A DNA stretch of 64,000 nucleotides from Escherichia phage VB-EcoM-WM. This document shows, piece after piece, positions 45,082 to 45,831 of the stretch. Location of the stretch: the sequence record PQ014731.1; one strand, written 5' to 3'. Numbering within the stretch: the stretch's first letter is position 1; every line of letters begins with the position of its first letter. The notes below the pieces were generated by a model that did no database searches, was not told where the DNA came from, and worked only from the letters and a program-made list of their open reading frames with translations. The position numbers were made by a program, and so were the translations under genes.

Positions 45082-45288
45082 TCATTCAAAGAAATGGGTG
45101 CGAGGGCAGGAACCTGCCTCACCTTGTTTCACAAGCTCATATAGCTCACCTTGGCTTGTCTCATAAAGGCAAATACGTTTACCATTGTCCCGATATACAT
45201 CTACAAGGTACGCTGTCTCACCTGCAAACACGACACCACAGACAAGGCATGCTGCCATGAACAAAATTGCCAACAGAAAATCTTTCAT
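45082..45288 (-). CDS. small secreted protein / putative lipoprotein (68 aa)
   Basis: Signal-peptide-like N-terminus with Cys; immediately downstream of endolysin. Confidence 0.4.
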   Translation of the reverse strand: MKDFLLAILFMAACLVCGVVFAGETAYLVDVYRDNGKRICLYETSQGELYELVKQGEAGSCPRTHFFE

Positions 45289-45351
45289 GGTTAAACACTC
45301 CCAAACATTTTATGAGGTGACAATACCACGTCCGTGTGGTTATGTCAACCA

Positions 45352-45831
45352 TTAATCCAGTACTGTGCCTCCGGCTTTTCGGAAGACGTCCAGCATCTTC
45401 TCTATGTTTTCTACACGCTGATCATACAGTTTACCAGCCCCCGGTGGTGGTGGGAAACTTGCCCAACGGCTACGGCATTTATAGATAGCTGAACGGATCC
45501 TTCCTTCATAAATGTCATCAAGGGCTTTACATTCGCGGATCAACTGTTTTGCTATGGCATCCTGACTTGCCGGACCAAAATCTCTTAAGCCAAGCTGCTT
45601 CATGTAATGCTTAGCGTATTTCTCCAGAATTTGGTATCTGCCAAATGCTGAAGAGGTAAGGCCTGGTCTTAATTTGACATAAATACCGGGATGCCTGCTG
45701 AGATCCTCTATGTATTTTCCACCAACAAGGATGTGGTACGAAGCATCTTCGCCACCATACCTGTCAGTACCTTCTGAGTGTGAAATCATCGAAAAAAATG
45801 CTCTCAATTGTACATTTTTATCTAGCTTCAT
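45352..45831 (-). CDS. endolysin, lambda R-like lytic transglycosylase
   Basis: Resembles lambda R along its length as recalled (AFFSMISHSEGTD, GRYQ, GLRDFGP, ASFPPPPGAG). Confidence 0.8.
   Translation of the reverse strand: MKLDKNVQLRAFFSMISHSEGTDRYGGEDASYHILVGGKYIEDLSRHPGIYVKLRPGLTSSAFGRYQILEKYAKHYMKQLGLRDFGPASQDAIAKQLIRECKALDDIYEGRIRSAIYKCRSRWASFPPPPGAGKLYDQRVENIEKMLDVFRKAGGTVLD

Follow-up and report, generated by a model that had tools for sequence, protein, structure and literature searches.

Dispersed lysis genes and candidate holins in the rV5-like Escherichia phage VB-EcoM-WM

Introduction

The current study concerns the lysis genes of Escherichia phage VB-EcoM-WM (sequence record PQ014731.1), examined in a stretch of 64,000 nucleotides (nt) that is referred to here as the window. 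On the minus strand of the window, between the DNA ligase and 5'-3' exonuclease genes and with an HNH gene on either side, lies an endolysin gene, followed by a gene for a small protein of 68 amino acids (aa), and a pair of spanin genes is found on the opposite strand. An earlier reading of the same DNA, made from the sequence alone, had noted this dispersal and the lack of a recognizable holin, and had proposed non-canonical lysis control with three small membrane proteins as possible holins. Phage therapy, biocontrol and typing all make wide use of rV5-like phages, and we found no experimental identification of an rV5-like holin in the literature. This gap limits both the understanding of lysis timing in this group and the engineering of these phages, which makes it a real, if modest, problem.

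The lysis genes of the window

Over a 3-kilobase (kb) stretch around the endolysin locus, the window shares 99.5% identity with Escherichia phage YP-6 and 99.0% with HMD-6, and 122 phage records match this stretch in total. The classified matches that were checked (EduardKellenberger, rV5) belong to the genus Vequintavirus of the Vequintavirinae, and sequence identity thus places the source of the window as a Vequintavirus (rV5-like) myophage of E. coli. The HMD-6 annotation supplies the general layout: small early genes on the plus strand come first, next a long minus-strand block of nucleotide and DNA metabolism genes and then many small genes, after which a structural block begins on the plus strand with tRNAs, spanins, terminase and head genes. 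The same genome annotation includes rIIA and rIIB homologues. Since more than half of the phage genome lies beyond the window, any list of holin candidates drawn from within it cannot be complete. The features discussed below are collected in Table 1.

Table 1. Lysis genes, candidate holins and associated features (TMD, transmembrane domain). Coordinates are those of the window, except in the last three rows, which refer to loci from other phage genomes.
Feature	Coordinates	Strand	Description
Endolysin, soluble GH104 / lambda-R-type lytic transglycosylase (predicted)	45352..45831	-	159 aa; rV5 Gp89 counterpart, divergent allele
Secreted mini-protein (predicted; rV5 ORF90, PHROG 4641)	45082..45288	-	68 aa; predicted cleavable signal peptide ending ...VFA/GE (slash, cleavage site), then 46-aa beta domain
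Sigma70-type promoter (rV5 'P90')	45320..45348	-	TTGACA, 17 nt, TATTGT; TG directly upstream of -10; consensus scan
HNH homing-endonuclease gene	45828..46592	-	stop overlaps endolysin start by 4 nt; Pfam HNH_3, PHROG 99
Second HNH endonuclease gene (rV5 ORF91)	44608..45072	-	10 nt downstream of 68-aa gene; PHROG 5200 at 2e-72; rV5 annotation
i-spanin, rV5 gp67 counterpart	56978..57376	+	132 aa; TMD 13-35 and periplasmic coiled-coil region; PHROG 4297 'Rz-like spanin', 1e-48
o-spanin	57373..57660	+	95 aa; lipobox L-C-G-C16, mature part proline-rich; PHROG 1267 at 4e-22
gp129 homologue, putative holin	21679..21915	-	78 aa; TMDs ~1-32 and 36-62; basic C-terminal tail
Single-TMD protein, gp131 counterpart	21445..21618	-	PHROG 15251 aligns residues 20-57; rV5 Table S3
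gp133 counterpart	20815..21276	-	153 aa; C-terminal TMD 124-153; PHROG 7821
gp134 counterpart	20409..20756	-	115 aa; N-terminal TMD; ~90-aa C-terminal domain predicted periplasmic, two Cys
87-aa protein	14319..14582	-	N-terminal TMD 1-29; PHROG 13956 (unknown function)
Tail-fiber operon membrane module, HMD-6 (locus L005)	30187-30501, 31645-31911
Tail-fiber operon membrane module, Klebsiella phage VLCpiM5a (locus L009)	2215-3288
Tail-fiber region with gp29-like protein, Aeromonas phage 2L372D (locus L010)	4154-5237

The endolysin proved to be lambda R-like, as the sequence-only reading had recognized. A phmmer search of the PDB aligned its residues 5-158 (154 residues, end to end) with lambda lysozyme (1AM7, E=6e-31) and returned 3D3D as a second match (8e-31), while PHROG 90 'endolysin' was matched at 1e-40. 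The catalytic S-E-G-T-D motif, which holds Glu19 of lambda R, is in register between the two proteins, reading hSEGTD in the endolysin and wSEGTD in lambda. Its N-terminus (MKLDKNVQLRAFF) is polar, and the hydropathy scan detected no hydrophobic segment, signal peptide or signal-anchor-release (SAR) domain anywhere in the protein. These features are those of a predicted soluble, cytoplasmic lytic transglycosylase of the lambda R type that carries no export signal. Since such an enzyme is soluble, established lysis biology leads one to expect a hole-forming holin. Presumably, the endolysin would accumulate in the cytoplasm and would depend upon a holin-made hole to reach the cell wall, with the holin being encoded elsewhere in the genome. 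It is scarcely credible that lysis is holin-independent, with the endolysin reaching the periplasm by some other route. Although the failure to find a holin homologue in either the window or the HMD-6 annotation would agree with such a scenario, the endolysin has none of the export features listed above and aligns end to end with a cytoplasmic enzyme. Furthermore, other phages encoding GH104 endolysins (lambda, HK97, P2-like and ViII-E1-like phages) have holin or holin-like genes annotated as overlapping or adjacent to them, and several unlinked small membrane proteins are available here as holin candidates.

The spanin pair is likewise supported, both by its matches to Rz-like PHROGs (Table 1) and by the lipobox of the o-spanin, which can be read directly from its sequence (MRVTALVVLCLLLCGC, then A). 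The two spanin genes overlap by 4 nt (57373-57376) and the end of the o-spanin gene coincides with the terminase gene's start codon, placing the pair at the head of the structural block, immediately upstream of terminase. The HMD-6 record annotates the same pair, and a curated spanin census lists rV5 under the 'separated' architecture. The endolysin and spanin genes lie 11.1 kb apart with the strands opposed, in line with the 11 kb estimated previously.

To survey the window for holins, a hydropathy scan was applied to every six-frame open reading frame (ORF) of 30-260 aa. The scan found no multi-TMD ORF adjoining either the endolysin or the spanins. A hidden holin at either site was also sought by combining start-codon re-annotation with the six-frame ORFs, and no TMD protein came to light. 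The absence of an adjoining holin noted in the sequence-only reading therefore stands, including under re-annotated start codons, the circumstance in which a canonical holin had been thought able to surface. The sole hydrophobic protein adjoining the lysis genes is the 68-aa protein, whose hydrophobic stretch acts like a cleavable signal peptide (see below). Among selected small membrane proteins of the window and of the tail-fiber module introduced below, none matched a holin family in Pfam, PHROGs or NCBIfam.

A dispersed layout as the norm of rV5-like phages

When the published record is examined, it is evident that this arrangement is a familiar one. The rV5 genome paper (Kropinski et al. 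2013, PMC3606486) identified Gp89 as the lysin and reported no holin homologue. According to the CB7 paper, the spanins of rV5, PVP-SE1 and CB7 adjoin the terminase, and these phages lack a lysis cassette; a holin was not identified in the LL12 announcement, the KPP-1 and Gotham reports contain none, and the BME3 paper describes two small unlinked candidates with the topology of class II holins. CRISPRi-ART in EdH4, an rV5-like phage, has been directed only at capsid and rII genes. A scattered lysis layout is consequently the already published norm for rV5-like phages and their subfamily, and dispersal is by itself no sign of a non-canonical mechanism. The proposal of 'non-canonical lysis control' is not sustained on this basis. 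We instead conclude, with a probability of roughly 0.8, that the window phage carries an ordinary Vequintavirus lysis gene set, scattered as it is in T4.

The lysis genes of T4 are e, t, rI, rIII and pseT.3/pseT.2. The parallels with T4 include unlinked endolysin, holin and spanin genes, a soluble endolysin located among non-structural genes, a 'separated' spanin architecture and the presence of rIIA/rIIB homologues in HMD-6. The systems differ in that no homologue of the T4 holin T, RI or RIII was detected and the endolysin belongs to GH104, rather than to the T4 E type. The closest parallel is with rV5 itself, which has the same order of ligase, endolysin, 68-aa ORF90 with its promoter P90, HNH gene and exonuclease, with the spanins located by the terminase (PMC3606486); rV5 gp66/gp67 were later recognized as spanins. 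The window departs from rV5 in its endolysin allele, which shares ~67% aa identity with Gp89, and in having an extra HNH gene upstream. As for the S-R-Rz/Rz1 cassette of lambda and its counterpart in Salmonella phage ViII-E1, the endolysins are of the same family (45-50% aa identity), and the lambda alignment confirms that the catalytic motif is kept. The ViII-E1 cassette consists of the endolysin, a 79-aa two-TMD protein and embedded spanins, so that a small gene immediately follows the endolysin gene, as it does here. However, the downstream gene in the window encodes a predicted secreted protein rather than a two-TMD holin, and the spanin genes occupy the opposite strand at a distance of 11 kb.

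Two late-promoter motifs were also considered and set aside. The T4-type late promoter TATAAATA occurs at 8 sites against 3 expected, with none of these in front of a lysis gene. The 'late' motif of rV5 (TGGTAAAATA) is enriched, with 16 occurrences against 7 expected, and is indistinguishable from an extended -10 sigma70 element.

gp129 and other holin candidates

The three holin candidates put forward in the sequence-only reading (14319-14582, 20409-20756 and 21679-21915) are real ORFs and were reasonable choices. Two TMDs are found in 21679-21915, and the other two proteins have one N-terminal TMD each. The proposal is neither new nor complete, since 21679-21915 encodes the homologue of rV5 gp129 and a further candidate, gp29, is encoded outside the window. 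In rV5, gp129 was the sole protein with two TMDs agreed upon by TMHMM and Phobius; it is 78 aa long with a Lys/Arg-rich C-terminus and was named a putative holin, lying apart from the lysin as in T4 (PMC3606486). The homologue in the window is 88.5% identical to rV5 gp129 (NC_011041 94058-94291) and has a good ribosome-binding site. Its tail (DYYKNTRKEKKESRDGYRT) is basic and highly charged, and its size and two TMDs fit a class II holin. Of the candidates located in the window it is the best, and we tentatively favor it as the holin, at somewhat less than even odds.

Several observations weigh against this identification or, more broadly, against the ordinary scattered gene set. Firstly, the gp129 family is confined to Vequintavirus-like genomes and is fast-evolving, with identities of 55-99%. 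Secondly, there are two independent 59-aa gp129 variants (P0025, P0026) in which a frameshift after residue 46 destroys the second TMD. These occur on near-full-length contigs of up to 137 kb and are either assembly errors or, if real, an indication that gp129 is dispensable. Thirdly, the only promoter candidates near the gp129 operon are sigma70-like and unvalidated. Fourthly, none of the holin candidates is backed by experiment or homologous to a proven holin: the gp129 homologue has no significant holin match in Pfam, PHROGs or NCBIfam, a comparison of the gp129 family with the ViII-E1 holin-like protein yielded an hhalign probability of 0.2%, and the hydrophobic segments of gp29 are weak, with no TMD given for it in the table of the rV5 authors. 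Lastly, the adjacency of the endolysin and 68-aa genes persists through two endolysin alleles and a rearranged neighborhood, which leaves room for a functional link between them.

The gp129 gene is located downstream of a terminator-like hairpin that follows a ClpP-like gene. A strong hairpin and T-run terminator (AAAGCCCTCTTCGGAGGGCTTTTAT, rV5 t122) is present at 24250-24272 on the minus strand, ~15 nt before the next start codon. Given this terminator, the distal block of small genes, including gp129, must rely on read-through or internal promoters. A positional orthologue of gp129 was sought in Mydovirus KpS8, where a 71-aa two-TMD protein is encoded downstream of ClpP, and was not accepted, as the hhalign probability was only 24%. 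The adjacent KpS8 'hydrolase' exhibits a weak PTH2 likeness (E=0.008, below the Pfam cut-off) and no match to any wall-hydrolase family.

Another possible holin, less probable than gp129, is the late membrane protein gp29, perhaps acting together with a gp31-like protein. In this case, gp129 would be a genus-specific accessory membrane protein. gp29 is an 88-aa protein of the late tail-fiber operon (HMD-6 103645-103911, rV5 20937-21203), and its homologues are found in 368 phage records that include Vequintavirinae genera (Mydovirus, CB7, unclassified), phAPEC8-like Escherichia phages and Aeromonas Plateaulakevirus, as compared to the restriction of gp129 to Vequintavirus-like genomes. Its gene lies immediately downstream of gene 30, which bears the rV5 late-promoter motif P030, and the protein consists of a conserved 75-residue core followed by hypervariable charged C-terminal tails, an organization that is holin-like. 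The gp31-like protein (104 aa, with an N-terminal TMD and a coiled coil) occurs in 223 records and travels with gp29; in other genera the two genes are no more than ~0.8 kb apart, and a 157-aa polytopic membrane protein is encoded between them in Mydovirus. In addition, the BME3 record labels its gp29 homologue 'membrane protein-holin'. Conversely, the hydrophobic segments of gp29 score low (Kyte-Doolittle mean ~1.0) and were not picked up by hydropathy scanning, the protein matches no holin family, and some phage records label its homologue a 'structural protein'. At every locus inspected, among them that of Aeromonas phage 2L372D, the gp29 homologue resides within the tail-fiber module, and such strict linkage could reflect a role in fiber assembly.

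The gp129 homologue also heads a 1.5-kb cluster in which four membrane proteins are encoded. They correspond to gp129, gp131, gp133 and gp134 and represent two-TMD, single-TMD, C-terminal-TMD and N-terminal-TMD types, respectively. Conceivably, the holin or a holin-antiholin pair could be some other member of this cluster, such as the 115-aa protein in a manner similar to T4 T/RI, or else the 87-aa protein at 14319-14582, but we consider this improbable. For the 115-aa protein, the predicted orientation is N-in, and its periplasmic domain would contain two Cys. An N-in orientation with a periplasmic domain is also the topology of T4 T and RI. Set against this, neither the 115-aa nor the 87-aa protein is similar to T4 T, RI or any PDB entry, and the single-sequence AlphaFold2 model of the 115-aa protein, with a predicted local distance difference test (pLDDT) score of 53, is unusable for a fold comparison with T4 T/RI. 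The 115-aa family is moreover limited to one genus, being found in Vequintavirus records only. Its assignment as the gp134 counterpart derives from matching length (115 aa) and gene order; rV5 Table S3 describes gp134 as 'membrane protein, 1 TMD' (PMC3606486). A further point in favor of the cluster is that one of its members, gp133, is abundant enough to have been detected by virion mass spectrometry of rV5, in which it was a predominant protein (PMC3606486). The true product of the gp131 counterpart is likely to be only 39 aa (21445-21564).

The proteins encoded at 14319-14582 and 20409-20756 are otherwise unrelated, and their N-terminal TMDs share the motif ILMWV..VAFV, with 9/13 residues identical and a pairwise E=5e-4. 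This may represent a shared interaction motif, or it may be due to chance, as the motif is short. Overall, gp129, gp29 with gp31, and the gp131-gp134 cluster make up the holin shortlist, with the rest of the probability, about as much as for gp29, going to something else.

The secreted neighbor of the endolysin

The 68-aa gene starts 64 nt downstream of the endolysin gene. Among its relatives (~38% to 85% identity), the hydrophobic N-terminal 22 residues are the least conserved part of the alignment, and in all homologues aligned this segment is closed by a small-x-small or AxA-type site (VFA/G, AWS/G, AHA/G or AQA/S, with the slash marking the cleavage position). Conservation is strong in the mature 46 residues, two Cys of which are invariant. 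The combination of a variable N-terminus, an AxA site and a conserved mature domain argues for a cleavable Sec signal peptide, in agreement with the signal-peptide protein described at this position in the sequence-only reading. An AlphaFold2 model (pLDDT 81.5) depicts a helix at residues 2-17 followed by four strands, and no relative was found in the PDB by either fold or sequence. The 68-aa protein is accordingly predicted, from its sequence and model, to be a Sec-exported periplasmic mini-protein, which probably contains a disulfide. In holins, it is the TMDs that form the conserved core. The 68-aa protein was rejected as a holin because its hydrophobic part is its least conserved portion and ends in an AxA cleavage site, while its conserved core is the 46-aa beta domain with two Cys. 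The removal of the endolysin's neighbor from the holin candidates, as a secreted mini-protein, is new in this analysis.

The profile of the 68-aa family also matches repeat units within large proteins (P0038, P0040, P0043), exemplified by the five tandem 'FYEGSTGSAEMYEIAQNG...' repeats of a 655-aa protein. Judging from these profile matches, the mature domain of the 68-aa protein may be akin to a common beta-hairpin repeat unit.

The promoter P90, an element that is annotated in rV5 as well, immediately precedes the 68-aa gene. In the metagenomic relatives L015-L018 (~3935-3965), the -35 hexamer, the 17-nt spacing, the upstream TG and most of the -10 hexamer are kept, and the spacer sequence is unrelated. 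This phylogenetic footprint, in which hexamers and spacing are maintained across diverged spacer sequence, supports a functional promoter.

Though not a holin, the 68-aa protein could belong to the lysis system as an antiholin-like sensor, or by inhibiting the transglycosylase or incoming tail lysozymes; some periplasmic role of this kind, in lysis control or superinfection exclusion, appears unlikely. T4 offers precedents for small secreted regulators in RI and Spackle. By analogy only, the 68-aa protein resembles T4 Spackle (gp61.3) and RI in being small and predicted to be periplasmic, in its probable disulfide and in its host-type promoter. No sequence or fold similarity to them was detected, and its 46-residue all-beta domain is unlike either protein. 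The predicted export would bring it to the compartment in which the endolysin acts, and rIIA/rIIB homologues are annotated in HMD-6. The 68-aa gene directly follows the endolysin gene across two alleles that are ~67% identical. Furthermore, in the IMG/VR contigs L016 and L018 (1-8192), which represent a divergent rV5-like lineage, the pair is still intact downstream of the exonuclease and a phosphoesterase, rather than directly after the ligase; the endolysin allele is HNH-linked in L016 and of the rV5 type in L018.

Other phages separate the two genes. The interval between DNA ligase and exonuclease in Salmonella phage SSBI34 holds a gene of the same PHROG, and no ORF neighboring this gene matches a lysis family. 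Similarly, a phage deposited as Acinetobacter phage ABPH49 has a 68-aa homologue in the ligase-exonuclease interval, where no endolysin is annotated. The homologue thus keeps its genomic position in both phages without an endolysin beside it. Serratia phage Kashira presents the reverse situation: its GH104 endolysin gene is located elsewhere, between glutaredoxin and PhoH, and its neighbors (a soluble 131-aa protein and PhoH) include neither a small membrane protein nor a 68-aa homologue. Within the window, the 68-aa gene has its own host-type promoter, which argues against co-regulation with the endolysin by simple read-through, and the break in homology to rV5 falls exactly between the two genes, indicating that they evolve as separate units. 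The lack of similarity to solved structures, in sequence or fold, likewise offers nothing in favor of a lysis function. A combined scheme can also be envisioned, in which the 68-aa protein is a new periplasmic lysis regulator, such as a transglycosylase inhibitor or a sensor that delays lysis, and the Vequintavirinae holin is supplied by the gp31-like and gp29-like proteins of the tail-fiber module. If true, this would be unlike either the lambda or the T4 paradigm, but we regard the conjunction as distinctly unlikely. The ordinary, T4-like scattered gene set remains our preferred reading.

An exchangeable endolysin cassette

The endolysin gene of the window differs from that of most relatives. 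It is >=95% identical, that is, at least 95%, in only 6 phage records (of the V18, YP-6, HMD-6 and EduardKellenberger type), and 100% identity is limited to V18-type phages. Its aa identity to rV5 Gp89 is ~67%, as given above, and falls at 60-80% in 92 other records. In a DNA alignment of the window with rV5, the 3' end of the ligase gene is identical, after which the HNH gene at 45828-46592 is present in the window only; the endolysin ORF then aligns at ~65-70% nucleotide identity, and identity rises to ~98% exactly at the endolysin stop codon and P90 promoter. The HNH gene is missing from rV5 and, in the loci compared, goes with this endolysin allele. Because the alignment to rV5 breaks sharply at the edges of this segment, the endolysin appears to be exchanged as a unit with the HNH gene. 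From the sequence comparison, it is best viewed as an exchangeable allele cassette that is swapped together with its homing endonuclease, leaving the neighboring genes undisturbed. The window endolysin is a minority allele, and its recognition as an exchangeable, HNH-linked cassette is new in this analysis.

A minor observation pertains to the records used for comparison. For approximately 20 GenBank records (MG0656xx) labeled as phages of Campylobacter jejuni, all genes tested had 95-99% identity to those of E. coli rV5-like phages. Probably, either the host label of these 'Campylobacter phage' records is wrong or the preparations were contaminated.

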